From contig CP064975.1 of assembly GCA_016699425.1 (NCBI GenBank), positions 1,149,369 to 1,213,368 on the forward strand: DNA of 64,000 bases, written 5' to 3'. Under the pieces are notes generated by a model. The model made no database searches. It saw nothing but the letters and a program-made list of their open reading frames with translations, and was not told where the DNA came from. Origin of the DNA: Candidatus Moraniibacteriota bacterium. Its GTDB lineage: Bacteria; Patescibacteriota; Minisyncoccia; Moranbacterales; UBA1568. Made by a program: the position numbers and the translations under genes. Of the stretch, positions 24,258 to 41,060 are shown piece after piece (position 1 is the first letter of the stretch; the number at the start of each line of letters is the position of its first letter).

Positions 24258-24390
24258 CTGCTAGATACTGTGCTTGGGCTGCCTGGGATATGCATCAGGG
24301 CAGCTTTTTGTTTTAGACCCCTCCCCCCGTATAATAGAGGGAGTCATTGCTCGCCGGTGGCTTTCAGAGTAGGATATCCAGACTATATAT

Positions 24391-26259
24391 ATGAGTACTA
24401 CGACCGAAGACATCAAATCCCGCCTGAACATCGTCGACGTGGTCGGCCAGTACGTGAAGCTGCAGAAGGCTGGGTCACACTGGAAGGCGAATTGCCCGTT
24501 CCACCAGGAGAAGACGCCCTCTTTCTCCGTGAACGAGGAGCGCAATATGTGGCACTGTTTCGGCTGTGGCAAGGGCGGGGATGTGTTCGCGTTTGTCATG
24601 GAGATCGAGGGGCTCGAATTTCGGGAGGCACTGAAGCTCCTCGCGGAGAGAGCCGGAGTCGAGCTCCCAGAGTATCATGGCAGCGGCCGGCCGGCCGGCG
24701 AGACCAAGGATCGCGGACTGGAAATATTGGAGCTTGCGACGAAATTCTATGAGAAACAGCTCTGGGAGAGCGAGCGTGGCAAGGCGATACTCGCCTATCT
24801 CCATAAACGCGGACTGACCGACGAATCCATCCGCACCTATCGGCTGGGCTATGCGCCGGATGGCTGGCGTTTCATTTTTGAATTTCTCCTGAAACGAGGG
24901 TATAGCGCAGACGAAATAGAACGTACTGGCCTGGTCATTCGTAAAACCAACAACCAACAACCAACAACCAGCAACACGGATCCCTCCCAACCCACAACCC
25001 ACAACCTACAACCCACAACCTCTGGTTACTACGATCGCTTCCGTGACCGGATCATGTTTCCGATTGGTGATATCTTGGGCCGCCCAATCGGTTACTCGGC
25101 GCGGGTCGACCCAGGCGGTGATGAGACTCAGGCAAAGTATATCAATACGCCCGAGACGAACCTGTACCACAAGAGCCGAGCACTCTATGGTCTCGCCCTT
25201 GCCAAACAAGCGATCAAAGAGGCGGGACGGGCGATCCTCGTCGAAGGCAATATGGATGTGATCGCACTCCATCAGGCGGGGCTGGCCAATGTCGTCGCAG
25301 TGTCTGGGACGGCGCTGACTGTTGAGCAGCTCGGGATATTGAAGCGCTATGGGAAGAAACTCGCCCTGTTCTTCGATATGGACAAGGCGGGACAGGCAGC
25401 GGCCTGGAAGAGTGCCATCCTCGCGTTTGGTCTGGACTTCGCGGTCGAAGCCGTCGCGCTCTCGAGTGGCAAGGACGCGGCTGATATGAACCGCGAAGAC
25501 CCGGAGCAGTTGCGTGCCGCCGTAGCGGATGCCCAGCCGGCGATGCGGTACTTTCTCGATTCGCTCCTCCGGGATGCTGATGCCGGGAGTCAGGACGGCA
25601 AGAACCAAATCGTCGAACGCTATGCTGAGCTCTTGGCCGCGACTCAGAATGAGCTCGATCGATCGCACTGGACCAAGGAACTCGCGGCCGCCATCGGTGC
25701 TGAACCAAAGGTCGTCCAGGCAACGGTCGAAAAAGTCTTTCGCTCGCTGCAACGCGGCGATCACTTCATCGAAAGCCGTCCGAGTGGGACCTTTCTCCCG
25801 AAGACTTTTGGCCGTCGATCGGAAGTCTTGCGTGAAGGACTCATCGGTCTCATGCTCGCCAGTCCGACGGCGCAAGAGGTCGTCGCGCTTGAGACAGACA
25901 GAGCCGTCTCGGACTTTCTCGCGCTCCACCCGATCGCTTTCTTCATTCGCAATAATCCATCGGATCCGATCGCCGCGATCGAGGATCGAACCCTTCAGAG
26001 TCTCGCGAGTGATATCTTGTTCCGGACACTCGAGCTCCCCAGTTTGCGCGCGGCCGAAGAGGAGAGAGAAACGGTCGCAGCGAATATCACAGGTGAATAT
26101 CTTCGCGACCTGCGGTCCGAATTGCATGAAAAGGATGAACGTCTCGCCCTCGGGCGCGCGATCGAAGCCGCTCGACAGGCTGGCGACAAAAAGGAGGAAC
26201 GTCGTCTTTTCGAGGAATTTGCTCGACTGACCAAGGGCGATGCTTCCCAGAACGGGTGA
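24391..26259 (+). CDS. dnaG: DNA primase
   Basis: CHC2 zinc-finger (CPFHQEKTPSFSV...WHCFGCG), TOPRIM region, position directly upstream of rpoD. Contains a low-complexity insert NNQQPTTSNTDPSQPTTHNLQPTTS. Confidence 0.9.
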   Translation: MSTTTEDIKSRLNIVDVVGQYVKLQKAGSHWKANCPFHQEKTPSFSVNEERNMWHCFGCGKGGDVFAFVMEIEGLEFREALKLLAERAGVELPEYHGSGRPAGETKDRGLEILELATKFYEKQLWESERGKAILAYLHKRGLTDESIRTYRLGYAPDGWRFIFEFLLKRGYSADEIERTGLVIRKTNNQQPTTSNTDPSQPTTHNLQPTTSGYYDRFRDRIMFPIGDILGRPIGYSARVDPGGDETQAKYINTPETNLYHKSRALYGLALAKQAIKEAGRAILVEGNMDVIALHQAGLANVVAVSGTALTVEQLGILKRYGKKLALFFDMDKAGQAAAWKSAILAFGLDFAVEAVALSSGKDAADMNREDPEQLRAAVADAQPAMRYFLDSLLRDADAGSQDGKNQIVERYAELLAATQNELDRSHWTKELAAAIGAEPKVVQATVEKVFRSLQRGDHFIESRPSGTFLPKTFGRRSEVLREGLIGLMLASPTAQEVVALETDRAVSDFLALHPIAFFIRNNPSDPIAAIEDRTLQSLASDILFRTLELPSLRAAEEERETVAANITGEYLRDLRSELHEKDERLALGRAIEAARQAGDKKEERRLFEEFARLTKGDASQNG

Positions 26260-26304
26260 AATTTGCTAGCCTGAGCCTACAAAACGGTAATCTCTTTGCT
26301 CACT

Positions 26305-27615
26305 ATGGCCAAAAAACCGCTGAAAAAGAAGAAGCCGACGCCGAAGAAACCGGCTTCCAAGAAGAAGTCAGCCAGGAAACCGGCTCCGAAAAAGCCGGCC
26401 AAGAAGCGACCGGTTGCCAAGAAGACGCCGCGGAAGGTGAAAAAATCAGCCCCGAAAAAGAAGCCCGTTGCCAAGAAGCAGTTGTCTCCGAAGAAGTCTG
26501 TAGCAGGGAAGAAACCCTCACGTGGGGAGTTGGCCCAAAACGCTTTTGATGAACTGATCAGCCGTGGCAAGCAGCGCGGCTTTGTCACCGAAGACGAGAT
26601 CATTCACATCCTCCCGGATATCGAGCAGGACCTCGATGGTCTCGAAAATCTCTATGAGCAGCTCGAGACTTCCGGCATTCGCATCGTCGGTTCCGAAGAA
26701 ATGTTGAAGGTCCATGAAGAGAAAGAGGAAGTCGTTGAAAAGGGGAAGAAGAAAGACAAGATGATGGACTTGGGCGAGAGCGATGATGCCTCGGACTTGG
26801 TCCAGATGTATCTGAAGGAAATTGGCCGCGTGACCCTCCTCACGGGCGATGAAGAGGTGAAGCTCGCCAAGGCCATCGAGAAGGGTGACCTCGTCGCGAA
26901 ACAGCGGCTGACCGAGGCCAATCTCCGACTCGTCGTTTCGATCGCCAAGAAGTATGTCGGCCGTTCGCACAATCTGTCACTTCTCGACCTCATTCAAGAG
27001 GGGAATATCGGCCTCTTCCGGGCGGTGGAGAAATTCGATTACCGCAAGGGGTTCAAGTTTTCGACGTATGCGACCTGGTGGATTCGCCAGGCGATCACTC
27101 GGGCTCTGGCCGACCAGTCCCGCACCATCCGCATCCCGGTCCACATGGTGGAGACGATCAATAAGTACGCCCAGGTGACCCGACGTCTCGTCCAGGAGCT
27201 CGGGCGTGAGCCGCTCGCCGAGGAAATCGCGGCTGAAATGAATCTGGAAGTCGACAAAATCCGCCATATTCAGAAGATCTCGCAGGAGACGGTCTCACTC
27301 GAGACGTCCGTCGGTGACAATGATGATGACTCCGTGCTTGGTGACTTTATCGAAGATACCGAGACCGTCATGCCGCACCAGATGGCGGCGCGTAAGCTCT
27401 TGCGCTCCCATATCGGAGCCATCCTCGACGAGCTCACCCCGCGCGAGCAGAAGATACTCCGGATCCGGTTTGGATTGGAAGATGGTGTCACCCACACGCT
27501 CGAGGAAGTTGGACAGGAATTCGGCGTCACCCGCGAGCGTATCCGTCAGATCGAAGCCAAGGCACTCGAGAAAATCCGTGAACATGACCACCTGAAAAAG
27601 CTCCGAGATTACTAA
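26305..27615 (+). CDS. rpoD: RNA polymerase primary sigma factor with a Lys-rich N-terminal extension
   Basis: Regions 1.2-4 ([12 protein letters not shown]..., [13 protein letters not shown]..., [15 protein letters not shown]..., C-terminal HTH). About 60 N-terminal residues of KKPxxKK repeats. ATG at 26305. Confidence 0.9.
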
Positions 27616-27626
27616 GAGAGAGCACC

Positions 27627-27649
27627 CGCCCCCAATTTCGGGGGCGTTT
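27627..27649 (+). terminator. Weak terminator-like hairpin after rpoD
   Basis: CGCCCCC-AATTTC-GGGGGCG followed by TTT. Only 3 U. Confidence 0.3.
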
Positions 27650-27653
27650 ATCT

Positions 27654-28130
27654 ATGCCACATATCCATACCGAACCGGGCCAGATTGACTCCATCGCCGA
27701 GGTGTTTGTCGTTCATCGGGACCGAGTACTCATCCGATTCCATGAGAAATACCATATCTGGATCGCCCCGGGTGGACACATCGAACTCGATGAGATGCCG
27801 GAAGAGACGGCTGTCCGTGAGGTCAAAGAAGAAACGGGTCTCGACGTGGCACTCTATACCGGGAACCGACTGCCAGCAGAGCGTGGAACAGGCCGACTGC
27901 AACCGCTCACTCCACCGATGTTTATGAATGTCCATGTGGTGAATGCGAACCATCGCCATCTCGTGTTTGTCTACTTCGCGACGACCGAGACGGACCAGAT
28001 CGTCCAACCTGAGACGCATGAGAAGTCTGATTGTCGTTGGATGAATCGGGGAGAAATCCTGGCGGCGACGGATATGGAGGAGACTATCAAGTCCTACGCT
28101 TTGAAGGCGCTTGAGATACTCTCGGTCTAG
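27654..28130 (+). CDS. NUDIX hydrolase
   Basis: Nudix box GGHIELDEMPEETAVREVKEETGL. Confidence 0.8.
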   Translation: MPHIHTEPGQIDSIAEVFVVHRDRVLIRFHEKYHIWIAPGGHIELDEMPEETAVREVKEETGLDVALYTGNRLPAERGTGRLQPLTPPMFMNVHVVNANHRHLVFVYFATTETDQIVQPETHEKSDCRWMNRGEILAATDMEETIKSYALKALEILSV

Positions 28131-28186
28131 GCTCATTTGTCCAATGGGGTTGCATTTGCTAACCTACACTCTCCACTTCGGAGATC

Positions 28187-28750
28187 ATGTTCATTCACAA
28201 GGAGGCAATGATGAATACTATCCTTCGGGAATTAACCTATCCGTTGGATATACCGAGGACGTATCTCGCGATGATCTGGGGGAGTATCGATTCTCGGGAG
28301 TACCAAAGAGTCTTTATTCAGACACCGACAGGCTCGATCGATGCCACGGACGGAGGGAATTTCTCTTGTGCCATCTATGTATCATCAGTCCTTTCACGGT
28401 GCGGTCTTACGACGGGGGGTATGCACGCAACTGTTGCTGAGACGATTCGCGATATGTGTGAGTCTGGCTGGCATGAGGTGTATTACTCATCGGATACAGT
28501 ACACTCGTTGCCCACGGGCTGCGTCATTCTCTGGGGTGAGGCTGGCACGTGTTCTGACGGTAGACTGCATCGGCATATCGGGTTCTACGTTGGGAATGGC
28601 GAGGCAGTCAGTAATCATCCCGTCGACCGGGTCCCGAGGCGGCACCATATAACCTTTGGTGAAGATGAAAATGGTGCGCCAGTGCGTCCAGTGGTGCGGG
28701 TGTACCACAATACTTTGCTCTGGAGAGACACGCCTGTCCCCGGTGTATAA
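28187..28750 (+). CDS. Papain-like cysteine peptidase/amidase (NlpC/P60-CHAP-like)
   Basis: Candidate Cys (GNFSCAIYVSSVL) and His (HIGFYVGNGEAVSNHP) spaced as in NlpC/P60-type hydrolases. Confidence 0.35.
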   Translation: MFIHKEAMMNTILRELTYPLDIPRTYLAMIWGSIDSREYQRVFIQTPTGSIDATDGGNFSCAIYVSSVLSRCGLTTGGMHATVAETIRDMCESGWHEVYYSSDTVHSLPTGCVILWGEAGTCSDGRLHRHIGFYVGNGEAVSNHPVDRVPRRHHITFGEDENGAPVRPVVRVYHNTLLWRDTPVPGV

Positions 28751-28906
28751 TTGGACGGATCGATTCGAGCTCCTGAGCTTTCCTTGAAGGGTAGCCGCCG
28801 CGACGGTTGCCTTTTTTCTTTTCTTCCCTATAATGAGAACGTTGCCTACGAGGCAGCTTAACAATCGAATATTCCGGCGTAGCTCAGTGGTAGAGCAGGT
28901 GACTGT

Positions 28907-29480
28907 GGACATATGGATGGTATACCGATGAATGGATGCCAGACACAAGAACCTATGCTGATCGTCGAGAGTACTTGAAACGGGCGGTTGCCAAACGGCG
29001 CAAGGCCGTGCGGAGGCGCGCGATCGAGTACAAAGGCGGAAAGTGTTCCCGTTGCGGTTATAAACGGTGTCAAGACGCGCTCGAATTCCATCATGCCCAT
29101 GGCGGCAAGGATTTCGGGATTCCTCAGGATGGACTCACTCGAAGTTGGGACAGAGTCCGAGAGGAAATAGACAAGTGCATCTTGGTATGCGCCAATTGCC
29201 ATAGGGAGGAACACGCAGAATTACGCAGCCTTTCGGAGAAATCCGAGAGTGATAAATGAGGTGAATTGCTGGAAGCCTACGGTCGATCAGCTCGGCTATG
29301 GTAATCAGCAGCCAAGCCCCAGTTTGTATTGGGGAAGGTTCAGAGACTATCTCGCAAGAGAGTACTTCGATATCATACGATATCGCGGGAAGCGCCTCAC
29401 TCCTAAGTCCGCTCTGTGAAGACAGATGACGGAGACGGAGATGATATAGTCCATTCTTTTCGGAAACGAAGAGGGAAATG
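28907..29480 (+). mobile_element. Group I self-splicing intron carrying an HNH endonuclease ORF
   Basis: Conserved core elements are readable: P AATTGCTGGAAG (29265-76), Q AATCAGCAGCC (29303-13), R GTTCAGAGACTA (29338-49), S ATGATATAGTCC (29441-52). U precedes the 5' splice site and G ends the intron. Confidence 0.75.
28936..29259 (+). CDS. HNH homing-type endonuclease encoded within the group I intron
   Basis: CSRCGY...LEFHHAHGGKDF...CILVCANCHREEH is an HNH / zinc-finger motif. Lies in a peripheral loop 5' of the P3-P9 core. Confidence 0.8.
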   Translation: MPDTRTYADRREYLKRAVAKRRKAVRRRAIEYKGGKCSRCGYKRCQDALEFHHAHGGKDFGIPQDGLTRSWDRVREEIDKCILVCANCHREEHAELRSLSEKSESDK

Positions 29481-29514
29481 TAATCACTTGGTCGTAGGTT
29501 CGAACCCTACCGCC

Positions 29515-29600
29515 GGAGCAGTTAAATTCAAGGCTTACTCAAGCCTTGTTTTTTGTTACCCTTCATGAAGGTTAGAACCTGGTATAATCAGGGTATGAAT
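29515..29600 (+). repeat. Intergenic cassette A: tRNA 3' end + terminator + GTTACCCT + extended -10 (TGgTATAAT at 29580-88)
   Basis: Homologous to cassettes at 30262..30345 and 34012..34090. The -10 lies 6 nt before the ATG at 29595. Confidence 0.6.
29530..29554 (+). terminator. Rho-independent terminator after the tRNA (part of repeated cassette A)
   Basis: AAGGCTT-ACTC-AAGCCTT followed by GTTTTTT. Confidence 0.65.
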
Positions 29601-29825
29601 AAATCTTGGCACGAAAAACATAAGTTATTGATGCCCTCTATTCTTCAAGAGAGGGTGAAGTGGCACGAGCAACATTCTAAACATTGTGGCTGCCGAAAAG
29701 ATCTGCCGAAAACAATTGTTGCTGCTCTCAAAGAACAAGGCAAAAAAGTCTGTAGTCGCGGACACATTTACAGCGGCAGCAGTTCCTGTCCTATTTGTTG
29801 GCCCGGACAACAAAAACAACACTAG
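29595..29825 (+). CDS. Small Cys/His-rich zinc-ribbon-like protein
   Basis: MNKSWHEKHK...CGC...C...H...CPICW. AT-rich island gene. Confidence 0.35.
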   Translation: MNKSWHEKHKLLMPSILQERVKWHEQHSKHCGCRKDLPKTIVAALKEQGKKVCSRGHIYSGSSSCPICWPGQQKQH

Positions 29826-29828
29826 CGT

Positions 29829-30211
29829 ATGAACACGACTCTCTATAAAGACGCACTTGGTTGGGGAATTATGCTTTGGCTTGTTGGCTATGTTCTTGGG
29901 ATCGTCCTTTTACACTTGTGGCACCCTCTATCCTTGGATGGATTATTATGCCCATCGGAACAATCATTACGCTTTGGGTACTCCTCAAGAAAATAAGGAG
30001 TGAATCTTTTCAGGACTATGTTTTTATCGCAATTGCCTGGACTCTTATCGCCGTGGTTTTTGACTATGTATTTCTCGTGATGATATTCAAACCAGTAGAT
30101 GGATATTATAAGTTGGATGTGTACGTATACTATGCTCTCACCCTGATTCTCCCACTGGCTACTGGTTGGAGCAAAAGAATTTCTCAAAAAATAGATAGTT
30201 CAGGTATATAA
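29829..30211 (+). CDS. Small integral membrane protein, apparently frameshifted at about 29905-29925 (ATG-frame 29829, continuing in the 29861 frame)
   Basis: Two overlapping hydrophobic reading frames join into a plausible multi-TM protein. A single downstream ATG alternative is at 29948. Confidence 0.3.
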
Positions 30212-30261
30212 ATATTCTCGTACTGGCGTAAAATTACGGTTCTAACACCATTCACGATGCG

Positions 30262-30345
30262 GAGCAATGAAATGTGAGGCTTACTGAAGCCTCTTTTTTG
30301 TGCCACAAGGAGTAGGTTAGAACCTGGTATACTTTCGATATGAAA
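30262..30345 (+). repeat. Intergenic cassette B: terminator + extended -10 (TGgTATACT at 30326-34), 6 nt before the ATG at 30341
   Basis: Near-identical hairpin and GGTTAGAACCTGGTATA motif to cassette A. Confidence 0.6.
30276..30299 (+). terminator. Rho-independent terminator (cassette B)
   Basis: GAGGCTT-ACTG-AAGCCTC followed by TTTTTTG. Confidence 0.6.
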
Positions 30346-30737
30346 CTAAAGTCATTTTTTCAAGTATAGCCACCTTTTTTATAGGAGGAGTTATTTTTCT
30401 TTGGAAAGAAAAACAATTGACTCTGGATCATCCTCAAGCAAGCGATAGTCGAGCAGAGACTTGTTTGGTGGAAACGATTAGAGAAAGGCCTGATATTGGA
30501 TACGATGCCTGGAAGGAAAGTCATCCAGAGAGAATGCAATTGGCTGGTTATTATTCAAGAGATTCAGAGGGAGTTTATTGGTATCATACGAAGATTATTG
30601 GTGCAGATCCAGGGACCTTTGACGTTTACAGTGATCGCTATGCTCACGATATGTCAAACGTCTACTACGCGGGGAATAGTGATTTATATACCATTATTGG
30701 AGCGGATACTGAGAGTTTCCAAGCAAAATGCTTTTAA
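30341..30737 (+). CDS. Secreted DKNYY-repeat-like protein; frameshift in a T-run near 30356-30361
   Basis: DKNYY-like repeats (GVYWYHTKIIGADPGTFDV..., NVYYAGNSDLYTIIGADTESF). The signal peptide MKLKSFF/SSIATFFIGGVIFLW is only recovered by a 1-nt shift in the homopolymer. Confidence 0.4.
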
Positions 30738-30777
30738 AAGTCTCAATTACCACCCACAAATTGATAAGTAATTCAAT

Positions 30778-31335
30778 ATGAACCAAGAAATCACATTTAT
30801 TACAGGTAACGAAAAGAAGGCAGAATATCTTGCCAAGTATCTTGGCTTTCCGGTAAAGCGCGCGAAGCTTCATCTTGAAGAAATTCAATCTTTAGACTTG
30901 AGAGAGATTGTAGAACATAAAGTTCGGCAGGCATTCGAAAAAGTCAAAAGTCCAGTGATAGTGGAGGACGTTTCGCTCGAATTTGAAGCTCTGGGAAAGT
31001 TACCTGGCCCATTTATACGCTTTTTCGTTGAAGAAGTTCCTTTTGAAACGATTTGCTCGATGATTGATGGTAAGTCTCGAAAAGCTACCGCCCGCTGTGT
31101 TTTTGGATATTACAATGGCAAAACTCTCAAGCTCCTGGAAGGAAAACTAGACGGTGAAATAGCTAAGGCTCCTGCAGGTGAAAATGGCTATGGCTGGGAC
31201 AAGATTTTCATTCCAGAAGGGTACTCTGTTACCAGAGCAGAGCTGGATGAAGCAGATGATGAAAAAACATACTTACAGATAAAGCCATTTGCTGAGTTGA
31301 AGAAGTTTCTTCAGGAGGTCAGTAATTCGAAGTGA
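30778..31335 (+). CDS. rdgB: Non-canonical purine NTP pyrophosphatase (Ham1/RdgB/ITPase family)
   Basis: FITGNEKKAEYL...IVEDVSLEFEALGKLPGPFIRF...GYGWDKIFIPEGY matches the Ham1 fold pattern. Confidence 0.75.
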   Translation: MNQEITFITGNEKKAEYLAKYLGFPVKRAKLHLEEIQSLDLREIVEHKVRQAFEKVKSPVIVEDVSLEFEALGKLPGPFIRFFVEEVPFETICSMIDGKSRKATARCVFGYYNGKTLKLLEGKLDGEIAKAPAGENGYGWDKIFIPEGYSVTRAELDEADDEKTYLQIKPFAELKKFLQEVSNSK

Positions 31336-31347
31336 AATAGTTAACAT

Positions 31348-32343
31348 ATGCCTAAATCTATTGAAATATCCCATCTTTCGAAAAAATTTACTTTTCCTGT
31401 CAAAAGCAGTGCTTCAGGTTGGGTAAAGAACTTATTTAATCCAGAGGTAAAGGAAATTGCTGCAGTAAATGACGTTTCCTTTTCGGTAGCCGAAGGTGAG
31501 AGAATTGCCTTTATTGGCCCAAATGGCGCAGGGAAATCTACCACGATCAAGATGCTCACGGGGATACTATTTCCCACGTCGGGCAGTATAAGTGTGCTCG
31601 GACTTGATCCGACCAAAGACAGGAAGAAACTCGCCTACCAAATCGGAACCGTTTTTGGCCAGCGTTCACAGTTACTCCCTAATCTTCCTGTAACAGATTC
31701 TCTAGAGTTTTTTGGCGTTATGTATGATATGTCGGATGGGGAGATCAAGGAGCGGATTGCTCAATTAACAGAGCTTTTCGAGCTTAATGATTTTATTGAT
31801 CAGCCAGTTCGTAAACTTTCCCTTGGACAGAGAATGAGAGCTGAAGTTGCTACCTCTCTTATCCATAAGCCAAAAGTTATTTTCTTAGATGAACCCACTA
31901 TTGGTCTTGATGTAGTAGCTAAAAAGTCTCTGAGGGACTTATTGTTGCGAATCAACGAAGAGGAAGGAACTACAATATTCTTAACTTCTCACGATGTGGG
32001 AGACATACAGTCTCTATGCAATAGAACAATCATTATAAATCACGGGAGCGTCATCAAAGATTTGCCTACAGAAGACTTATCAAAAACTTTTGTTTATGAA
32101 AAATATATTGACCTTATTCCTACCGAAAAGTTTCAAGACTTTCCTGAACTTATTGCTGGGATTCAATACTCAAAAAAGAGTCCTAACCTTATAACTGTGG
32201 TGGTGGACATCAATAAAATAAGTGTCAAAGAGTCTCTTAAGAAACTTCTAGATATGTTTGATTTGGAAGATGTTGACGTTTACAACGCTGACCTTGAAAC
32301 GGTTATTAGGCACATTTATGAGAAGGATGCGACTAGCCTCTAA
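31348..32343 (+). CDS. ABC transporter ATP-binding protein
   Basis: Walker [11 protein letters not shown], signature LSLGQRMR, Walker [12 protein letters not shown], plus a C-terminal accessory domain. Confidence 0.85.
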
Positions 32344-33118
32344 AATTCTCAGAACATTGATAAAAGATCAGATGTATCATCCTGATCGTCTTATTGCTGA
32401 TACTTTTGCCATAGTGGCTCGATGCGGAGTTCTTCTGGCTCTCTATTGGTATGTTTTTCAACTAAAGGGAGGTGAAGTAAATGGAGTAAGTTTTACTGTA
32501 GTGGCCTGGAGTATGTTTTTTTACTTTGCCTTTTCGGTTTTACGATTAAGGGATATTTCAAGGTTAATAATGGGAGATGTCCAATCTGGGAACGTGGAAG
32601 TTTTATTTAATAAGCCGATCTCATACTTAGCCTATAGAATGTGGTGGCAACTTGGAGCTGGTCTCTACCCTTTCCTCATTACCACTCTTCTCGGCGGGGC
32701 AGTGCTGGCTCTTGTTACAGGTACTCCTGACACTATGAGACTCTACATCTTTTTGCCCTCGCTCTTTCTAGCTTTCATTGGCGCGGCACTTCTTTCTCTC
32801 GTTCTCTACTCCATCATAGGACTACTCGCTTTTTGGATTGAAGAAATAAATCCTATTTTCTGGATAGTAGACAAGGCCGTAATGATATTAGGTGGATCAT
32901 ATCTGCCTGTGGCGTTATTCCCAGTTTTTATGTATAAATTAGCAATTTTTAGCCCTTTCGGAGCTTCACAATTCATTACCCACTCAGTTTATGACTCCTG
33001 GCAATCAAATTGGTATACGTTACTCGGAATCCAATTATTTTGGATAATCGTTCTTTCTCTAGTTGCTTACATAATGTTTGCTAAGGCGAGACAGAAGGTT
33101 TCAATAAATGGAGGTTAA
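32318..33118 (+). CDS. ABC-2 type permease subunit
   Basis: Six predicted TM helices, positioned after the ATPase. ATG 32318 is in frame within ORF 32258. Confidence 0.55.
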
Positions 33119-33917
33119 GCCTATGTGGAAGGAACTAAAATTTGCTTTCTATACAATCAAAAAGAACATCCAAAGTAGTGCTGAGCTTCGCACGAGCTTT
33201 CTGATGAATATTATTGGGATGGCCATTAACAATACCTCCTTTATCATTTTATGGATTTTCTTTGTTCAGTCAGTAGGAGTGATCGGGGGATGGACTGCCG
33301 CTGATATAGTGGGACTCCAAGGCTTCCTCGCTATCTCTTATGGCATAGTTTTTTCCGTAGGAGTAGGCATAAGAAAACTTCCAGAATATGTAACTTCAGG
33401 AGCTTTTGATAGATTTATGCTTTCTCCTAAAAGCTTACTTACTCGAGTAGCTACGGCTTCATTTAGCCCATCTGGAATTGGGGACATTGTTTTTGGGGCT
33501 ACTTGCCTGATAATCTATGGAATTTTAATTCACGCTACTGCTTTTCAGGTAGCCTTGATGCTCATCTTTGTTTTTCTCTCTGTGATCGTCTTTGGTGCTA
33601 CCGCTATAGCGATCTACTCCCTTAGTTTTTTCTTTATGGATTCGACTGCCACAACAAACGGGATTTTCGAGTTATTTATGACACCTACTCTTTTTCACGG
33701 GGGAGCATTCCAAGGAGGAATGAGGTTTATATTCACTTTTATTATCCCCTCGCTTCTTATTGGAGCTCTGCCAGTAGAGGCAGTGAGAGATATTTCACTC
33801 CTCAAGCTCTTACTTGTGAGCGTATTAGCCATTCTTTGGCTGATTTTGGCTATTAAGATTTTTCACAAAGCTATCCGAAGATACGAAAGTTCGAATTTAA
33901 TGACCTTTGGAAGCTAG
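33108..33917 (+). CDS. ABC-2 type permease subunit (second)
   Basis: Polytopic membrane protein. Start overlaps the upstream stop. Confidence 0.55.
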   Translation: MEVKPMWKELKFAFYTIKKNIQSSAELRTSFLMNIIGMAINNTSFIILWIFFVQSVGVIGGWTAADIVGLQGFLAISYGIVFSVGVGIRKLPEYVTSGAFDRFMLSPKSLLTRVATASFSPSGIGDIVFGATCLIIYGILIHATAFQVALMLIFVFLSVIVFGATAIAIYSLSFFFMDSTATTNGIFELFMTPTLFHGGAFQGGMRFIFTFIIPSLLIGALPVEAVRDISLLKLLLVSVLAILWLILAIKIFHKAIRRYESSNLMTFGS

Positions 33918-34011
33918 CTGTTATAAGCCAATAGTGGGAACGCTTCTAGCTCGAACTTCAAATCTTGAGCGATCTGTTTCCAGTTCAGAGTTCTAAAGCT
34001 GTCCGCTAGGG

Positions 34012-34090
34012 GGAGCAGTTAAAAACAGGGCTAAGATGAGTCTTGTTTTTTGTTACCCTAAGCAGGGCTTGAACTGATATACTGGATGCA
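34012..34090 (+). repeat. Intergenic cassette C: GGAGCAGTTAAA (direct repeat of the tRNA 3' end) + GTCTTGTTTTTTGTTACCCT + TATACT (34078-83)
   Basis: About 50-nt imperfect direct repeat of 29515..29565 at the far side of the AT-rich island. Confidence 0.5.
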
Positions 34091-34105
34091 GTTAAAGAAT
34101 CTTCT

Positions 34106-34738
34106 GTGGAACTATTTCTCACCTCAAGTGTTCATGCTGTGGCACATGACATTGCAAAAAAAGTAAATCTCTCCAAAGCCAACAAGTTGGTGTTTATTGA
34201 TACTGCATCCGAACCAAAGGGAGAGCGAGAAGACTTGGAGTGGCAAAAAATTGATAGACAAGCACTGGCAGATGCTGGGTTTGTAGTCAGTGACTATACC
34301 ATCACTGGAAAATCAAGAAGCCAAATAGAAACAGATTTGGACTTGTTTGACTGCATATATCTTTCTGGCGGAAATACGTCCTATCTTCTACAACAATCCC
34401 AGATAACAGGGTTTGATACTTTAATTAAAGAGCTCGTTCAAAAGAAGGGGAAAATATATATTGGCACGAGCGCAGGCTCAATCATCACGGGGCCAAAACT
34501 CCTCGACTACTTCAAGACTGAAGAGGTGAAACTGGAGAGCAAAAATTGCTATGGCCTTGTGAACTTTACCATCGTGCCACATTGGGGTTCTGAGGATTTT
34601 AAAGAGAAATACTTGGGTGAAAGAATGGAAATAGTTTATAAGGAAGACCAGGTGCCACCACTCTTACTCACAGATAATCAATATGCCCATGTGCAGGGTG
34701 GTCAGATGGAAATTGTTGATGTCAAATCAGGTACATAA
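34106..34738 (+). CDS. Peptidase S51 (dipeptidase E / cyanophycinase-like)
   Basis: YLSGGNTSYLL...IYIGTSAGSII motif. GTG start. AT-rich. Confidence 0.65.
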   Translation: MELFLTSSVHAVAHDIAKKVNLSKANKLVFIDTASEPKGEREDLEWQKIDRQALADAGFVVSDYTITGKSRSQIETDLDLFDCIYLSGGNTSYLLQQSQITGFDTLIKELVQKKGKIYIGTSAGSIITGPKLLDYFKTEEVKLESKNCYGLVNFTIVPHWGSEDFKEKYLGERMEIVYKEDQVPPLLLTDNQYAHVQGGQMEIVDVKSGT

Positions 34739-35046
34739 ACTAACCCTTGTCTTCCAAGGGCGATTCTAACGTCCTGAATCGGAACGGGGAGAAATCCCCA
34801 TTCGAGCGGTGAAGCCTATCTCTATAGGCCGATCCGCTTTTTGTTTGTAAGTGAAAACCCATCAGCTTTCACAAGCGGGTAGGTCTTGGTTTCGTTTTCA
34901 TTTATCTGGTTGGATCTGGAGGAGTGGTATCGGTCTGGTCTGGTCTGGTCTGGACGCACTGGGGAATATGCGGTAGGATACTGGGTCCATTTCGGGACTC
35001 TGTCGGGAAACCTCGGTAGCTTAAAATCTCATGGAAGGAGAGCTGA

Positions 35047-35475
35047 ATGTTGGCAAGATTATATCCGGATCTTTCAGCACTGGATCCGCAGATTGTGCCT
35101 CTGGTTCGAGTGATTACAGCGATTGGTTTGCCACCAGTGTACGCTTGTGCCGGACACGCGGAGGAACGTCGGGGTATCATGCAGTATGCCTACCCGGTGG
35201 TCTTTCTGTCACTGGAAACGAATGATGAGAGACAAGAGAAGTGTTTCCAACGGCTCGTCGAGATGCTTGGGATTTTCAATAACAGCTGCCACAGCCAGTA
35301 TGATGTGGCTTGGGTGTTGGATCGGGTGGAGAGCCAGCAGTTTGGCCATGTCCGGTCTCTCAGGCCAGCGAGTACCGGTCGTCAACTCAGGGAACTCCAC
35401 CGCGGCATCGAACTCCTGGTGTACAACCTCGGGTTGATGAATGAGTGGTATACCCAGACTGGAGATGGAAGTTGA
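35047..35475 (+). CDS. Hypothetical protein
   Basis: ATG with the upstream GGAAGGAG RBS. No recognisable domain. Confidence 0.4.
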   Translation: MLARLYPDLSALDPQIVPLVRVITAIGLPPVYACAGHAEERRGIMQYAYPVVFLSLETNDERQEKCFQRLVEMLGIFNNSCHSQYDVAWVLDRVESQQFGHVRSLRPASTGRQLRELHRGIELLVYNLGLMNEWYTQTGDGS

Positions 35476-35530
35476 TCCGTCTTAGCAGAAAATCTGCTCC
35501 GGCGGATTTTTTGTTTGCCGATGGAGTACA

Positions 35531-35564
35531 AAAAAAGCGGGTGACTCGAAGTCCTCTCCCGCCC
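35531..35564 (-). terminator. Terminator for the minus-strand gene 35584..35961
   Basis: On the minus strand: GCGGG-loop-CCCGC followed by TTTTTTT. Confidence 0.45.
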
Positions 35565-35583
35565 TCTTGTTCATCGAATCTGA

Positions 35584-35961
35584 CTACTTCTTCCCCGTGG
35601 TGCGCGTTGCCTTTTTGAGCGCATCCTCCTTGGCAGTCTTGGCGAGCTTGCTCATCGACTTCCAGTGTTTCTTCAAATCCTTGGCAATTTCTTCAATTTC
35701 CGCCTTACCGGCGCGCTTGCCCTTCGTGTATTCCTTGGCGACGGCATCGATGATTTCGTGATAGACGGGTTCTGTGATCTCGCGGGCGTGCTCGAGTTGT
35801 TCGACGACTTCACCCTTCATCTTGATGACCCAGGCGCGGGCATGCTTCTGATGGACTTTGCCTTTCGGTCCGAAGAAGAAGTAGGCGGTGGCGGCGATGC
35901 CAGCGAGGCTAGCGCCGATGACAGTGTACAGAGCGGCATTCGAAGATGGTTTCTTGGGCAT
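35584..35961 (-). CDS. YtxH-like membrane-anchored stress protein
   Basis: N-terminal TM followed by a charged helical region rich in K/E/A. Confidence 0.45.
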   Translation of the reverse strand: MPKKPSSNAALYTVIGASLAGIAATAYFFFGPKGKVHQKHARAWVIKMKGEVVEQLEHAREITEPVYHEIIDAVAKEYTKGKRAGKAEIEEIAKDLKKHWKSMSKLAKTAKEDALKKATRTTGKK

Positions 35962-36288
35962 ATGATTGATAATGAGTAATTGTCTGCAGTGATGAGGGCG
36001 ATTCTAATGACGAGAGCAGGAAACGATGGATCTCATTCGCGTTTTTTCTGTGCCATACAGAGAGGTATACGACTTATGGCTCTAGAATAGTCCTATTTCT
36101 CCCATTAAGCAAAGTGGCAGGTGCCGAAAGCGGGTCGAAGGGATAGAGAGTACTTGAACGATACTCAGGATGAAAAAGCTCGACATTGCCACGCTCGAGG
36201 CAGCAGCCCAGGGGAGCGGTTAGTAACGCTGGTCTTGGATGAAACTACCGAGGGAAAGGGACTCACCGAAGCCTCTTTTTTTGATTCC

Positions 36289-36317
36289 TTGACATACCCC
36301 CAGGGGGGTATTACGAT
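36289..36317 (+). promoter_or_regulatory. Promoter of the cop operon with a CsoR operator palindrome in the spacer
   Basis: TTGACA (36289-94), then the 17-nt spacer ATACCCCCAGGGGGGTAT (36294-36311, a GC-tract inverted repeat typical of CsoR operators), then TACGAT (36312-17). Confidence 0.65.
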
Positions 36318-36346
36318 AGAGAGGTAAATATTCTGTTGATAGTGCT

Positions 36347-36610
36347 ATGACGCCAGAGAAAGAGAAGCTCGTCCGTCGGCTGAAGATCATCGAGGGCCAG
36401 GTGCGTGGCCTGCAGGAGATGCTCGTGAAGGATGCGTACTGCATCGATGTCATCACGCAGACTTCGGCCGTGAAGCAGGGTCTGACCGTCGTAGAGGACG
36501 CGCTCATGGAAAGCCATCTCGGCACCTGCGTCATCGCCCAGATCAAGGGTGGAAAGGAAGCAAAAGCGAGGGAGGAAATTCTCAAGGTCTATCGGCTGAA
36601 GAGAAAATAA
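36347..36610 (+). CDS. csoR: Copper-sensing transcriptional repressor (CsoR/RcnR family)
   Basis: RLKIIEGQVRGLQEML...C..D...Q..A...AL...HL..C fits the CsoR metal-ligand pattern. Confidence 0.8.
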   Translation: MTPEKEKLVRRLKIIEGQVRGLQEMLVKDAYCIDVITQTSAVKQGLTVVEDALMESHLGTCVIAQIKGGKEAKAREEILKVYRLKRK

Positions 36611-36636
36611 TTGAAATAATCTTTGAAAATATTCAT

Positions 36637-37200
36637 ATGCCATCCTCTCTCTCGCTTCCGTTCGCCATCGTACTCATGATTATTACAGGAATTCTTGGGA
36701 TGGGAATTGGATATTCTCTGACCCCTGAGTATCGCCTTTCGATGTATGAAAAGAATACAATGAATCTCGGTCGAGCTGACCGGACACTCGATCTTCGCTA
36801 TGTGAATGCGATGATCGCTCATCATCGGGGAGCGATGCTGGTCGCGGAGCAGGCTAAGAAAAGCGAGCGGGCCGAGGTGAAGAATCTTGCTGAGGTGATA
36901 CTCAAAGACGAACCGAAAGCCATCGCAGAATTGTACGCCTGGAAAAAGGATTGGTATCAAGATGAACGAAAAGTTGTGGATCCGATTGTTCCAATTCTTG
37001 GAACGTACGATAAGTCTTTCGATTTGCGATTTCTCAATGCAGTCATAGTGCATCATGAGAACGGCATTGTGATGACCCAAGATGTTCGATTGAAATCGAA
37101 CCGATCTGAGGTACTTGATAATGCTGATGCCGTGGAGGCTTTCCTGAAAGGTGGGATTGCGATGCTCAAGGAGTGGCGAAGCGCGTGGTATAGTCTGTAA
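36637..37200 (+). CDS. DUF305-family metal-binding membrane protein
   Basis: Repeated [14 protein letters not shown] / [13 protein letters not shown] motifs. Confidence 0.65.
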
Positions 37201-37208
37201 TTACCGGT

Positions 37209-39494
37209 ATGAAAAAAACAATACTCTCCGTATCGGGAATGCACTGTGCCAGCTGTGCCGCCATCATCACGAAATCCCTCCAGAAGATTGAAGGCATTGC
37301 TGAAGTGCAGGTGAATTATGCCACCGAGACGGCAAGCATTTCATACGAGCAGCCGAGCCCGCCAGTTGAGGCCATGAATGAAGCCGTCACAAAGTATGGC
37401 TATAGCCTCAGTCGACGGGAAGCCATCCAGTCAGTTACGTCTACGGCCGAGCATGGGGAACATGTTCCGTCAGTAGGGGGCGGCCACGATCACTCCCTCA
37501 ATGTAGCTGAGTTAGCTGGCCAGCGCGCTAAAACGGAATTCGTATTTCCGCTCGCACTTACTGTCTTCATCATCATGATGTGGGATATCGCAGCCAAGTC
37601 GTTTGCTACTGTTCCGAATCTGCCGCTCCCGATGGAAATTTTTAATGTCGTTTCGCTTGTTCTCGCCACGATCGTGATGTTCTGGATTGGCCAACCATTC
37701 ATTGCTGGCGTTATCCGGTTTATCCGGTATCGTGTTGCCAATATGGATACACTCGTCGGCATCGGGACGCTCTCGGCGTATTTGTACAGCGCTATCGTCA
37801 CGCTTTTGCCTGTGGTGCGTGAGCGGTTTCAACTGCCGGACTACACGTACTTCGATGTCGTTATTGTCGTCATCGGTTTCGTCACCCTTGGTAAATATCT
37901 CGAGGCCCGTTCGAAAGAGAAGACGGGCGAAGCTATCAAAAAACTGCTTAATCTCCAAGCGAAAACGGCACTCGTTTTGCGTGATGGCAAGGAGAAAGAG
38001 ATTCCGGTAAATGAGGTGGTTGTTGGTGACACGGTTATCGTGAAGCCGGGAAGCAAGATCCCAGTCGATGGGAAAATCATCGAAGGCAAGACTTCGGTAG
38101 ATGAGTCAATGATCACGGGAGAGTCGATGCCGACAGATAAGATCGTCGGTGATATGGTTATCGGTGCAACCATCAATAAGCAGGGAAATATTCAGCTCAC
38201 CGCGACCAAGATTGGAACTGACACCATGCTTTCTCAGATTATCCACATGGTGGAGGAGGCCCAGGGTTCAAAAGCGCCAATTCAGGCTACCGCGGATAGA
38301 ATATCGGGTATCTTTGTGCCGGTAGTTCTGGGTATCGCTCTGGCCGCTCTCCTCGCGTGGATTGTGATCGGTTCGTTTTTCATTGGCCAGACACTCGCCA
38401 TTTCTTACGGACTACTCTCATTTGTCGGGGTGTTGGTGATTGCGTGCCCCTGCGCGCTTGGTCTCGCTACTCCCACAGCGATCATTGTCGGAGTCGGTAA
38501 AGGGGCGCAGTACGGCATCTTGGTGAAGGACGCGGAGAGTCTTGAGCTCCTCAGTCAGGTCGATACGGTAGTTTTTGACAAGACAGGCACTATTACCAAA
38601 GGTGAGCCCTCGGTGACAGATATTGTTGTCCTCGATAGTCACTATACGGAGCAGCAAATCGTCGTATTTGCCGGGAGCGTTGAAAAGAAATCAGAACATC
38701 CGCTCTCGGCGGCGATTGTTGCACGAGTCAAGGAAATGGGGTTGGATTTTGCGCCGACCGAGAACTTCCAGGCACTTGAGGGAGTGGGCGTCCAGGCACA
38801 TGTTCTAGACGCACAAGTTTCTATTCACAAGCCGGAGAAGAATAACCAGGATTCAGGACTTCGAACCCTTCAATCCGAAGGGAAGACAGTCGTTGTCGTC
38901 GAGGTGGATGGCAAGGATGTAGCGTTCATCGCTCTTGCAGACACTCTAAAAGAGGAAGCAGTCACCGCTGTCGCTTTACTTCGAAAAAAAGGGATTCGGA
39001 CCATTATGCTGAGCGGGGATAATCAGATCGTGGCTAATCAGATTGCTAAAGAAGCCGGGATCGATACGGTTATCGCTGAAGTCCTGCCCAATGAGAAGGC
39101 GGGAAAAATTCGCGAACTGCAGGTATCGGGGAATGTCGTTGCGATGGTGGGTGATGGGATTAATGATGCCCCGGCCCTGGTTCAAGCGAATGTAGGAATT
39201 GCCATGGCAACCGGAACGGATATCGCGATCGAGTCAGCGGGGGTGACGGTGCTCCATGGCGACTTGCACCGAGTTGTTCAGGCAATTGAGCTCTCGCGGG
39301 CGACGATTCGAACAGTGAAGCAAAATCTCTTCTGGGCGTTCGTCTATAATGTCATCGGTATTCCGGTAGCCGCGGGATTATTGTATCCGCTTTGGGGTAT
39401 TATCTTGAACCCGGTGTTTGCCGGACTCGCGATGGCATTCTCTAGCGTATCGGTGGTTGGAAACTCACTCCGGTTAAAAACGAAAAAACTCTAA
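37209..39494 (+). CDS. copA: Copper-translocating P1B-type ATPase
   Basis: N-terminal HMA (GMHCASCA), [18 protein letters not shown]. Confidence 0.9.
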
Positions 39495-39503
39495 TTGCAC
39501 CTT

Positions 39504-40526
39504 ATGAATACAACTTACACATTTCACATTTCGGGGATGCACTGTAATGCCTGCATCCTCTTGACGGAAAGCGAACTCCTCGAACATCCGTCGGTCTCCT
39601 CCGCACGATCGAGCTTGAAGACCCATTCGGTCGAAGTCACTGGTGACTTTGGAGCAGCCACCCCGGACGATATCGCACTGAAACTCTCGGCGCTGCTCGA
39701 AAAGCATGGCTATCACCTCTCGACCGAGAAAACTGTCGCCCCGAAAAACTGGGCCGATTTCCGATACGCTCTGCCGATCGCACTGGGATTCGTGGCGCTC
39801 TTCGTAGCGCTCCAGAAAATGGGCATCGTGAATCTCGTCGATACGGGTACGGTCTCTTATGGCACGACCTTTCTCGTAGGCGTCATCGCCTCGCTGTCGA
39901 CCTGCATGGCGGTAGTCGGTGGCCTGGTACTGTCCATGTCGGCGACGTTCGCTAGAGAAGGGGACCGGGTGAAGCCGCAACTCCTGTTCCATAGTGGTCG
40001 ACTCAGCACATTCTTCCTCCTTGGTGGTGTGATCGGGGCGCTGGGCGCGAACTTTTCTCTGAATACTACGGCGACGTTCGTCCTGAGTCTCATCGTCGGT
40101 CTCGTGATGCTTATCCTCGGCATCAATCTCCTCGGAGTGTTCCCGTGGGCGAAGCAGCTCCAGCCGACGATACCGAAGTTTTTGTCCAAACATGCCTATG
40201 GTGTTTCAAAGTTGAACCACACCCTCACGCCGCTCCTGATCGGTGTGGCCACGTTCTTCCTCCCATGCGGTTTCACTCAGTCGATGCAGCTCTATGCTCT
40301 GACGACCGGGAGCTTCATGAGCGGAGCGTTGACGATGTTCGCCTTTGCCCTCGGAACCTTACCCGTCCTTGCTCTCATCAGCTTCAGCTCTTTCAGTATT
40401 CAAGGAAGCGCCAAAGCGGGGATTTTCTTTAAGTCAGCTGGCCTCATTGTGATCTTGTTCGCTCTTATGAATATCACCAACAGTCTCGTCATCGCCGGAC
40501 TCATTCCGCCCGTGTTTAACTTTTAG
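39504..40526 (+). CDS. HMA-domain fused to a polytopic membrane domain (DsbD_2/UreH-like); putative metal transporter or chaperone
   Basis: GMHCNAC HMA motif followed by about 8 TM helices. ATG at 39504 (the ORF track uses TTG at 39495). Confidence 0.55.
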   Translation: MNTTYTFHISGMHCNACILLTESELLEHPSVSSARSSLKTHSVEVTGDFGAATPDDIALKLSALLEKHGYHLSTEKTVAPKNWADFRYALPIALGFVALFVALQKMGIVNLVDTGTVSYGTTFLVGVIASLSTCMAVVGGLVLSMSATFAREGDRVKPQLLFHSGRLSTFFLLGGVIGALGANFSLNTTATFVLSLIVGLVMLILGINLLGVFPWAKQLQPTIPKFLSKHAYGVSKLNHTLTPLLIGVATFFLPCGFTQSMQLYALTTGSFMSGALTMFAFALGTLPVLALISFSSFSIQGSAKAGIFFKSAGLIVILFALMNITNSLVIAGLIPPVFNF

Positions 40527-40536
40527 CTCGAGGACT

Positions 40537-40929: not shown

Positions 40930-41010
40930 TTGTGCGAACCACTCTTTTCATTCGGAACCCCGCGAGCTATCAGGGAGGATTGTCCGCCGAGATTCAGTAA
41001 TGATAAAACG

Positions 41011-41042
41011 AAACCCCCCGGAGAGAAGTCCAGGGGGTTTTG
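41011..41042. terminator. Bidirectional Rho-independent terminator between the cop operon and the convergent SWIB gene
   Basis: AAACCCCC-loop-GGGGGTTT with A-run and T-run flanks. Confidence 0.6.
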
Positions 41043-41060
41043 CTTATCCAATTGGATCGA

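Follow-up and report, generated by a model that had tools for sequence, protein, structure and literature searches.

A row of self-insulated, integrase-less gene cassettes behind the tRNA-Asn gene of a Candidatus Moraniibacteriota bacterium

How a segment of foreign-looking, AT-rich DNA came to lie directly behind a tRNA gene, together with imperfect copies of that gene's 3' end, is the question raised by a 64-kb stretch of the genome of a tiny-celled Candidatus Moraniibacteriota bacterium of the Patescibacteria (hereafter, the window), which we analyzed alongside public contigs (loci labelled L001 etc.). The original prediction, made from the sequence alone, had read the segment as a single tRNA-targeted island between two att-like copies of an imperfect ~50-nucleotide (nt) direct repeat. 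We found that the repeat copies do mark recombination breakpoints, but that they do not enclose one element between two att sites; the segment consists of at least three cassettes in a row, with a common junction between one and the next. Whole cassettes are present or absent among relatives, with breakpoints at the sequence GAGCA of the junction, and the same junction occurs in other Patescibacteria. The array probably arose by serial insertion of self-insulated, integrase-less cassettes at the 3' end of tRNA-Asn, with the crossover in or next to GAGCA.

Junctions and cassettes of the array

From ~29.5 to 34.75 kb of the window, GC content dropped from 0.51-0.58 to 0.36-0.44. The island (29521-34750) had a GC content of 0.404, compared with a mean of 0.547 (standard deviation 0.017, minimum 0.514) for the other 5.2-kb windows (z = -8.3), and its tetranucleotide distance to the rest of the window was 0.525, versus ≤0.28 elsewhere. 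Likewise, GC content at third codon positions was 0.35-0.42 in island genes versus 0.50-0.75 in flanking genes. Sliding GC and tetranucleotide analyses thus bore out the abrupt AT-rich segment that had been predicted, as well as its position directly 3' of an intron-containing tRNA gene, since it begins at GAGCA of tRNA-Asn(GTT).

The ~50-nt repeat is also real and takes in the tRNA end, but it occurs in three copies, not two, at 29515, 30261 (67% identical), and 34012 (81% identical), with zero copies expected in shuffled sequences. The exact repeat is limited to the last 5-6 nt of the tRNA (GGAGCA); 5' of these, the copies outside the tRNA carry a diverged T-arm-like motif. Ungapped searches for a second tRNA 3' end, run on the downstream part of the window and on loci that carry recombinases, yielded nothing above noise. 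The earlier claim that the repeat bounds the island did not hold, as the copy at 34012 lies 0.73 kb inside the compositional border with the AT-rich S51 peptidase gene (34106-34738) beyond it, and no significant junction copy stands at the right end. Across the 64-kb window, nhmmer detected no junction copy beyond the three. A fourth junction suspected by eye at the right border (34763-34850; ATTCTAA...GAGAA / GAGCGG plus a hairpin) was rejected, having no nhmmer support and a spacing of 19 nt rather than 16.

Alignment of the three window copies with homologous copies from other loci resolved four parts of the junction. The first is a left arm, GTTCKAA, starting 23 nt (7 + 16) before the core; at junction J1 the left arm is the tRNA's true T-loop, starting 18 nt before the core. 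The second is the core GAGCA, which in the tRNA corresponds to the last two acceptor bases, the discriminator G, and CA. The third consists of an A-tract, a hairpin, and a T-run, with terminator scan matches at 29529 and 30276 and hairpins more stable than shuffled sequences (z from -2.5 to -3.4). The fourth comprises a TTTGTTACCC-like sequence, a GTTMGAAC box, and an extended -10 element (TGnTATAMT) located 6-22 nt 5' of the next start codon. All three junctions lie on the + strand. J1 (29516-29588) contains the core at 29516-29520, a hairpin at 29529-29548 followed by a T-run (RNA fold -12.9 kcal/mol, z = -3.4), TTGTTACCCT, GGTTAGAACC, and the extended -10 element TGGTATAAT (29580-29588). 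J2 (30262-30333) contains the core at 30262-30266, a hairpin at 30276-30293, GGTTAGAACC, and the extended -10 element TGGTATACT (30325-30333). J3 (34013-34083) contains the core at 34013-34017, the A-tract, hairpin, and T-run at 34021-34051, TTGTTACCCT, the GTTMGAAC box as GGCTTGAAC, and the extended -10 element TGATATACT (34075-34083). Pairing within the J3 hairpin is kept via G-U pairs, which points to selection at the RNA level and to a real terminator. Judged by sequence, each junction is predicted to combine an intrinsic terminator with a sigma-70 extended -10 promoter, and at J1 and J2 leaderless transcripts are predicted, with starts 6-7 nt 3' of the -10 element.

Matches to the combined GTTMGAAC and extended -10 motif were found inside the island only (J1 and J2), with none in the host part of the window; GTTMGAAC-TGnTATAAT was therefore discarded as a general promoter of this genome, being confined to the island within the window. 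The same promoter type was found 3' of tRNA-Asn in the low-GC Patescibacteria loci L137, L123, L115, and L163. A minus-strand peptide reading of the left arms ('..RTLNW..'), considered as a gene remnant, was dropped because it has no open reading frame (ORF) and no homology to recombinase C-termini; it is what T-loop-like nucleotides give when translated in a single frame.

Divided at the junctions, the island comprises three self-insulated units on the + strand. Cassette A (29521-30261) carries a Zn-ribbon ORF (29595-29825) and a small membrane protein gene (29829-30211), and ends in a left arm of the form GTTCTAA-N16 (30239-30261). Cassette B (30262-34012) carries genes for a DKNYY protein (30417-30737) and a Ham1/ITPase (30778-31335), followed by a three-gene ABC-2 exporter (ATPase, 31348-32343; permeases, 32258-33118 and 33108-33917), with its left arm at 33990-34012. 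Cassette C (34013-34790), the innermost unit and the one common to all relatives, carries the S51 peptidase gene. Pfam matches on the island ORFs (DKNYY, Ham1p_like, ABC_tran, ABC2_membrane_6, and Peptidase_S51, the last at 1.9e-27) confirmed the cargo that had been proposed; the Zn-ribbon protein, the small membrane protein, and the first permease had no significant Pfam family. The absence of an integrase likewise held for the window, in that zero recombinases were found among the Pfam matches of the island ORFs, and tblastn with five recombinases from related loci against the 64-kb window gave nothing better than E = 0.05.

All cargo genes are typical of Patescibacteria: thousands of proteins match the ABC ATPase at 76-83% identity, and identities to homologues are 65-92% for the S51 peptidase and 60-77% for the membrane protein. 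The nearest ABC trios lie in AT-rich islands of other genomes of the candidate phyla radiation (CPR), where homology stops exactly at the trio borders. These two features, namely, the typical cargo and the trio in AT-rich CPR islands, indicate that the island is low-GC CPR DNA captured by a high-GC CPR genome. In another Moraniibacteriota genome, the S51 gene stands in an ordinary context between CTP synthase and L27. The ABC-2 trio (~80% identical) recurs as a discrete module in AT-rich islands of L203, L204, and L205-L208, in the company of HTH_17, large serine recombinases, SHOCT, HEPN_AbiV, Shedu (SduA_C), a KAP NTPase, and DUF5677; the island in L205 lies downstream of tRNA-Asp.

Several cargo genes show irregular starts or frames. 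The membrane protein gene of cassette A is distributed over two frames (29829-29996 and 29861-30211), its homologues in L217 and L216 are intact (123-127 amino acids, aa), and the NCBI annotation lists only an 87-aa product; the split reflects either a real frameshift (a pseudogene) or an assembly indel error. Immediately after the J2 promoter, an ATG opens a signal-anchor-like N-terminus (MKLKSFF..SIATFFIGGVIFLW; window 30340-30420, equivalent to L081 3875-3955) that is offset by one base from the reading frame of the DKNYY ORF, at a T6 tract. This frame break is probably real, since the independent contig L081 is in the identical state, and probably denotes a frameshifted gene or programmed slippage. 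At their starts (window 29595-29610, L217 3787-3800), the Zn-ribbon ORF and the membrane protein gene of L217 have a common promoter and first four codons (MNKS), and the window's membrane protein gene has a new start, MNTT, after the Zn-ribbon stop. The Zn-ribbon gene gives the impression of having been inserted secondarily, 5' in cassette A.

Cassette turnover and the same junction in other Patescibacteria

Cassettes, and the junction between the S51 gene and the first host gene to its right (p142), were compared in independent assemblies (L081 and L209-L213). L081, a 9.4-kb contig from an independent run, was 98.9% identical to the window over 5.6 kb (30262-35866), and the match began exactly at the G of GAGCA in J2. 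Left of J2 it carried another cassette, of 3.8 kb (GC 0.43-0.47), encoding an NTP_transferase, a GT4 glycosyltransferase, a NUDIX protein, and inositol-1-phosphate synthase; this cassette had its own left arm and was bounded by junction copies at L081 positions 3 (the very start of the contig) and 3797. Identity between L081 and the window was patchy, at 100% for the ABC proteins, and 95% and 94% at the nt level for S51 and p142, respectively.

In L209, a 65.9-kb contig from a sister species, window positions 24390-29527 were matched at 91.5% identity and positions 34047-44749 at 88.7%, so that homology ended at 29527 (J1) and restarted at 34047 (J3). Only an 835-nt NUDIX cassette, with junction copies on both sides, lay between its intron-bearing tRNA-Asn and the S51 gene. 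L210 and L213, which represent the L209 species in other samples, carried extra cassettes upstream of the NUDIX cassette (DUF2726; HD_4 with a 100-aa protein). In L210, the sequence right of GAGCA was identical to the tRNA-end junction of L209, and the sequence to the left was GTTCTAA-N16, not tRNA. Thus, cassette A was absent from both L081 and L209, cassette B was present in L081 and absent from L209, and cassette C stood beside the same host genes in L081 and L209-L213. L001 and L002 parted from the window directly after ...CCGGAGC(A), and downstream of the same tRNA, L001, L002, L081, L209, and L210 all differed. Three independent pairs therefore place the exchange breakpoints at the GAGCA core. 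The comparison with related genomes that had been proposed as a check accordingly showed the segment to be absent or different at the same tRNA.

The S51 gene was 87% identical (nt) between the window and L209, within the range of the flanking host genes (86-99%). Its presence in all relatives, together with this host-like divergence, identifies cassette C as the oldest, innermost unit, predating the species split; its GC content is unameliorated despite that age. Reproduction of the S51/p142 junction in L081 and L209-L213 further indicates that the island is not an assembly chimera. As to whether the repeat might be solely a recurrent regulatory cassette, each junction does carry a terminator and a promoter, but cassettes are exchanged there and the junction does not recur elsewhere in the window.

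A hidden Markov model of the junction (nhmmer) detected copies 3' of tRNA-Asn in L109/L144 (2e-13), L137 (2e-10), L013 (1e-9), L140 (4e-6), and L152 (4e-4), and a junction-like copy was present 3' of tRNA-Asn in L147 as well. A regular-expression scan of 2.06 Mb for GTTCKWA, a gap of 14-18 nt, and GAGCR returned six matches with a terminator; all six had exactly 16 nt between the two motifs, and all six were in the orientation of the tRNA. The left-arm geometry, with GTTC 23 nt before GAGC, was common to window copies 2 and 3, the second L081 junction (L081_J2), L013, L140, L147, L210, L217, and L201. The units enclosed were small (0.4-0.8 kb in L013, L140, L147, and L152), and arrays were also found behind tRNA-Asn genes without an intron (L140, L147, and L152). 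A homologue (72%) of the cassette A membrane protein occurred in the unrelated contig L217/L218 with a canonical left arm and core, and with the same promoter and first codons; a further homologue lay downstream of rpoD-tRNA-Asn in L216. Scans of metagenomes with the tRNA 3'-exon pattern mostly picked up high-GC bacteria that are unrelated, the window's left junction was not recovered a second time, and scans of IMG/VR with junction patterns gave chance or coding matches only, none with a terminator.

Two other types of element were observed behind tRNA-Asn. In L152 (3549-3956), a relative of L001, a 104-aa GIY-YIG-type nuclease ORF directly follows the tRNA. Downstream of the ORF come 15 nt that repeat the tRNA 3' end exactly (CCTACCGCCGGAGCA), and a terminator of the junction type; here the tRNA-Asn hotspot bears an att-like duplication of the classical form. 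An element of ~140-190 nt follows tRNA-Asn and its terminator in L109 (345-530), L147 (9798-9935), and L144, with remnants in L209 (9150-9203) and L210 (2651-2704). It begins with the 5' strand of the tRNA-Asn acceptor (GCTCCGGCG in L109, GCTCCGAGC in L147) and closes with a T-arm-like hairpin and CGCCGGAG. It may be an unannotated tRNA-like RNA; an Rfam search of the L109 element returned no match.

Recombination at the tRNA-Asn end

The tRNA that anchors the array is interrupted. Its 5' exon (28873-28906, + strand) extends from the acceptor stem to anticodon positions 34-35, and its 3' exon (29481-29518, + strand) ends in the first bases of the J1 core; between them, in the anticodon loop, lies a 574-nt group I intron (28907-29480, + strand; Rfam RF00028, 76.3 bits, 29171-29473). 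The intron contains an HNH homing-endonuclease ORF (28936-29259, + strand), for which the Pfam HNH match was below the curated cutoff. ARAGORN found zero tRNAs in the raw window, and the joined exons gave a canonical tRNA-Asn(gtt) fold. The splice ends could be read directly, the 5' exon terminating in T and the intron in G, and the spliced tRNA was nearly identical to the intronless tRNA-Asn of L140. Linkage of rpoD and tRNA-Asn is kept in relatives. The intron of the window, with its HNH ORF, occurs also in L002, L209, and L013; L001 has a shorter, ORF-less intron (8720-8915), and L019, L004, L140, and L216 have none.

The same tRNA end is used by elements that do encode recombinases. Genes for large serine recombinases overlap the 3' end of tRNA-Asn in L002, L088, L129, L155, and L201, and a 47-aa remnant is present in L112. 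In L002, the slot between tRNA-Asn and csoR holds four genes, encoding a large serine recombinase (497 aa, its last codons overlapping the tRNA 3' end), a tyrosine integrase, an HTH_17 protein, and an unknown product. L201 carries a 10.2-kb element with a large serine recombinase, a type III restriction-modification system, and SpoVG, and the distal end of this element reads GTTCTGA-N16-GAGCA, a strict pattern with an estimated chance expectation of ~0.004 in 10 kb. The tRNA-Asn 3' end is thus an integration hotspot in this lineage, and, through the distal arm of L201, elements with a recombinase and cassettes without one can be assigned to one site family. Because of this common site family, we propose that the cassettes are mobilized in trans.

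In the explanation that we favor, the breakpoints would delimit a unit composed of the GAGCA core, a terminator, an extended -10 promoter, the cargo, and a ~25-nt left arm (GTTCKAA plus 16 nt) whose sequence would imitate the tRNA's T-arm and acceptor end. On arrival, a cassette would terminate the transcript of the tRNA, or one from further upstream, and drive its own genes, and read-through of each cassette would be handed to the terminator of the next junction. The incoming right arm would recreate a target-like site, and the left arm would stay with the cassette on its distal side. The site would remain receptive because tRNA, GAGCA, and new terminator again resemble the original target. 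Arrays would then grow from the tRNA side, leaving the oldest cassette, that of S51, innermost; the order of insertion is to this extent a deduction from the model and from the ages of the units. Serial insertion of this kind would account for the breakpoints, for the fixed left-arm geometry on unrelated cargo, for the similarity of the right arms, and for the innermost place of the oldest cassette. We infer that a recombinase acting in trans performs the exchange, by site-specific recombination at GAGCA or close to it, and that this enzyme belongs to the large-serine-recombinase family found at the same tRNA-Asn end in relatives. A more far-reaching version, for which we have only tentative confidence, is that Patescibacteria possess an integron-like gene-capture platform on tRNA-Asn, not described before, whose small, self-insulated cassettes carry a tRNA-mimic site (GTTCKAA-N16-GAGCA) and are inserted one by one at the 3' end of the tRNA in trans, probably by a large serine recombinase of the family that targets this tRNA.

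Several observations weigh against serial site-specific insertion. The 64-kb window yielded no recombinase, nor did the sister loci within 10 kb, no excised circle or empty site was observed among the contigs, nhmmer gave no significant junction copy at the right end of the array, L002 has no clean distal left arm, and L217 shows one recognizable junction only, in an apparently longer row of small genes. The right arms also differ, consisting of recombinase coding sequence in recombinase-bearing elements versus terminator and promoter in cassettes, and an enzyme common to both types is therefore putative. Moreover, an attL is normally no longer a target for large serine recombinases. Finally, breakpoints at GAGCA are also expected from homologous recombination within the ~85-nt right arms.

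This last point leads to the strongest rival, which accepts the array and dispenses with a dedicated system: strains would exchange cassettes by homologous recombination, anchored in the tRNA/rpoD region and in the ~85-nt right arms, with the junctions serving as conserved terminator-promoter punctuation. The breakpoints do fall in stretches that are near-identical between strains, the patchy identity of L081 suggests frequent recombination, and the window and sister loci are without a recombinase. Double-strand breaks by the intron's HNH enzyme might stimulate such exchange through co-conversion of flanks, and an HNH-bearing group I intron does lie ~40 nt from the junction in the window, L209, L002, and L013; arrays are, however, also found behind the intronless tRNA-Asn genes of L140, L147, and L152. 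Homologous exchange further leaves unexplained the invariant 16-nt spacing on unrelated cargo in different genomes, the arm's mimicry of the tRNA end, and the presence of the same arm at the end of the recombinase-bearing L201 element. We regard it as a serious but rather unlikely account.

The reading of the original prediction, a single island between an attL at 29515 and an attR at 34012 that has lost its integrase, fits the AT-rich DNA adjoining the tRNA 3' end, a repeat that takes in the tRNA end, and the integrase-bearing elements at the same site in L002 and L201. It is contradicted by the third junction copy inside (30261), by the AT-rich S51 gene outside the proposed attR, by the independent gain or loss of the three blocks (L081 and L209), and by an S51 gene as old as the species split next to cassettes A and B, which are not, and it is accordingly improbable. 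Also contradicted, and the least probable of all, is an ordinary region passed on vertically, in which a regulatory cassette is reused locally, or else a chimera, formed in assembly or binning, that placed low-GC Patescibacteria DNA in a high-GC metagenome-assembled genome: the source is indeed such a genome, all cargo genes are typical of Patescibacteria (65-83% identical to thousands of homologues), and S51 has a normal context in another Moraniibacteriota genome, yet the S51/host junction recurs in independent assemblies and the tRNA/island junction type in L209, content differs between strains that are 98.9% identical, and the composition is an outlier by 8 standard deviations.

Setting, related systems, and significance

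The window is bacterial chromosome, with dnaG, rpoD, and a NUDIX gene upstream of the array and csoR, DUF305, copA, and a DsbD-like gene downstream; the direct flanks are rpoD, NUDIX, a 187-aa protein without a Pfam family, and tRNA-Asn on the left, and p142 and csoR on the right. The RpoD of the window is nearest to those of Candidatus Moraniibacteriota and other Patescibacteria metagenome-assembled genomes (L001, 91%; L002, 80%; L019, 72%). Phage origin, considered on account of the one-strand gene bias, was rejected, as a megablast phage search matched only rpoD and the neighbors are dnaG, rpoD, and copA.

The right border (34739-35046, + strand) comprises the rise in GC content, a GC-rich terminator (34803-34850; fold -28.1 kcal/mol, z = -3.5), and a conserved non-coding stretch before p142 (142 aa; 35047-35475), the first host gene to the right of this spacer. 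Column identity of the spacer among the window, L209, and L081 is ~97%, versus 87-94% in flanking genes, and it contains two strong hairpins and a conserved segment directly before the start codon. It may represent a leader or small RNA not recognized so far; an Rfam search of the spacer gave no match (best E = 0.8). A (TCTGG)n microsatellite within it (34934-34953) has two units fewer in L209 and a point change in L081. Directly 5' of the tRNA, the gene for the 187-aa protein (28187-28750) is 98.8% identical (nt) to its L209 counterpart, making it far more conserved than the neighboring NUDIX (86%) and dnaG (87%) genes; its Cys/His pattern, read by eye, is reminiscent of NlpC/P60-type hydrolases. 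Further upstream, a single ORF of 3131 aa (12374-21769, + strand) has an L209 counterpart called at 3866 aa. Giant proteins of this kind are typical of CPR genomes.

The closest analogue of the array would be a composite island of the staphylococcal cassette chromosome (SCC) type with recombinase-less members, the link to a recombinase being putative here. SCC islands (SCCmec, the arginine catabolic mobile element ACME, and pseudo-SCC) insert at the extreme 3' end of rlmH/orfX without inactivating the gene, and the site is regenerated, which leads to tandem piling with site repeats between elements and to content that varies between close strains; many units have no recombinase genes and rely on the large serine recombinases (CcrAB/CcrC) of sibling elements. 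The likeness lies in insertion at the 3' end of a conserved gene, in a GAGCA core with similar right arms at J1-J3 and in L081, L209, and L210, and in cassette content that differs among close strains. Unlike SCC, the target here is a tRNA gene rather than rlmH, the units measure 0.75-3.8 kb and start with a terminator and promoter, a tRNA-T-arm-like arm stands at a fixed 16-nt spacing to GAGCA, and the host is a member of the Patescibacteria.

Integrons resemble the array in their row of small, one-orientation cassettes ending in a recombination-site-like element, in an apparent single proximal insertion site, and in content that differs between close strains. In contrast to integrons, the array has no intI tyrosine recombinase, attI, or Pc beside it, it is anchored on a tRNA gene, and its junctions consist of a tRNA-end mimic and a terminator, with no attC imperfect palindrome and no R-box consensus by reading; moreover, integron cassettes are usually promoterless, whereas each cassette here has its own promoter and terminator. 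Having no intI, attI, or attC, the array is not a member of the integrons. Neither is it a classical tRNA island, as it has no integrase. Together with such islands, cis-mobilizable elements (CIMEs), and integrative mobilizable elements, it exhibits a tRNA 3' hotspot, foreign composition, and att-like repeats at cassette boundaries, as well as integrase-less units at a site also used by integrase-bearing elements; it differs in having ~5 nt of exact identity plus a diverged arm 5 nt longer than that of the tRNA, not a 15-50-nt exact duplication, and in units that are cassette-sized and self-insulated. Integrative mobile elements exploiting Xer (IMEX) at dif and pdif modules of Acinetobacter plasmids are recombinase-less, lie between short sites, are served by an enzyme encoded elsewhere, and can form arrays. 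The modules described here likewise lie, without a recombinase, between copies of a short site, but no dif-like (XerC/XerD) inverted 11-nt arms were seen around GAGCA, and the anchor is a tRNA gene. Phage morons are similarly autonomous gene units flanked by a terminator and promoter and deviant in composition, but the setting here is a chromosome (dnaG-rpoD-tRNA-Asn ... csoR-copA), not a prophage, and the units have a common recombination-type junction.

Patescibacteria, or CPR bacteria, have tiny genomes, and little is known of the mobile elements and the paths of gene exchange in this group; in full-text literature searches, neither cassette arrays nor tRNA-targeted islands were found to have been described for Patescibacteria. 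The rpoD-tRNA-Asn locus provides a defined hotspot that can be found in any CPR genome, and the junction signature marks cassette boundaries, which makes the flexible gene pool searchable. Because natural alleles in public metagenomes (the window, L081, L209, and L210) differ by whole cassettes, turnover rates and circular intermediates are open to direct testing, and the polymorphism of the tRNA-Asn intron among relatives offers a good system in which to study intron homing in CPR bacteria. As tools for genome integration, the candidate large serine recombinases, for which attB (the tRNA-Asn end) and attP arms are predicted, hold practical interest. Apparently core CPR genes, namely, those for Ham1, the ABC-2 exporter, and the S51 peptidase, move horizontally between CPR lineages of differing GC content. 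If the gene-capture platform proves true, these bacteria, with their reduced genomes, would have an accessory locus whose content is hot-swappable, and this could account for the ~80% identity that modules such as the ABC-2 exporter show between CPR lineages very distant from one another.

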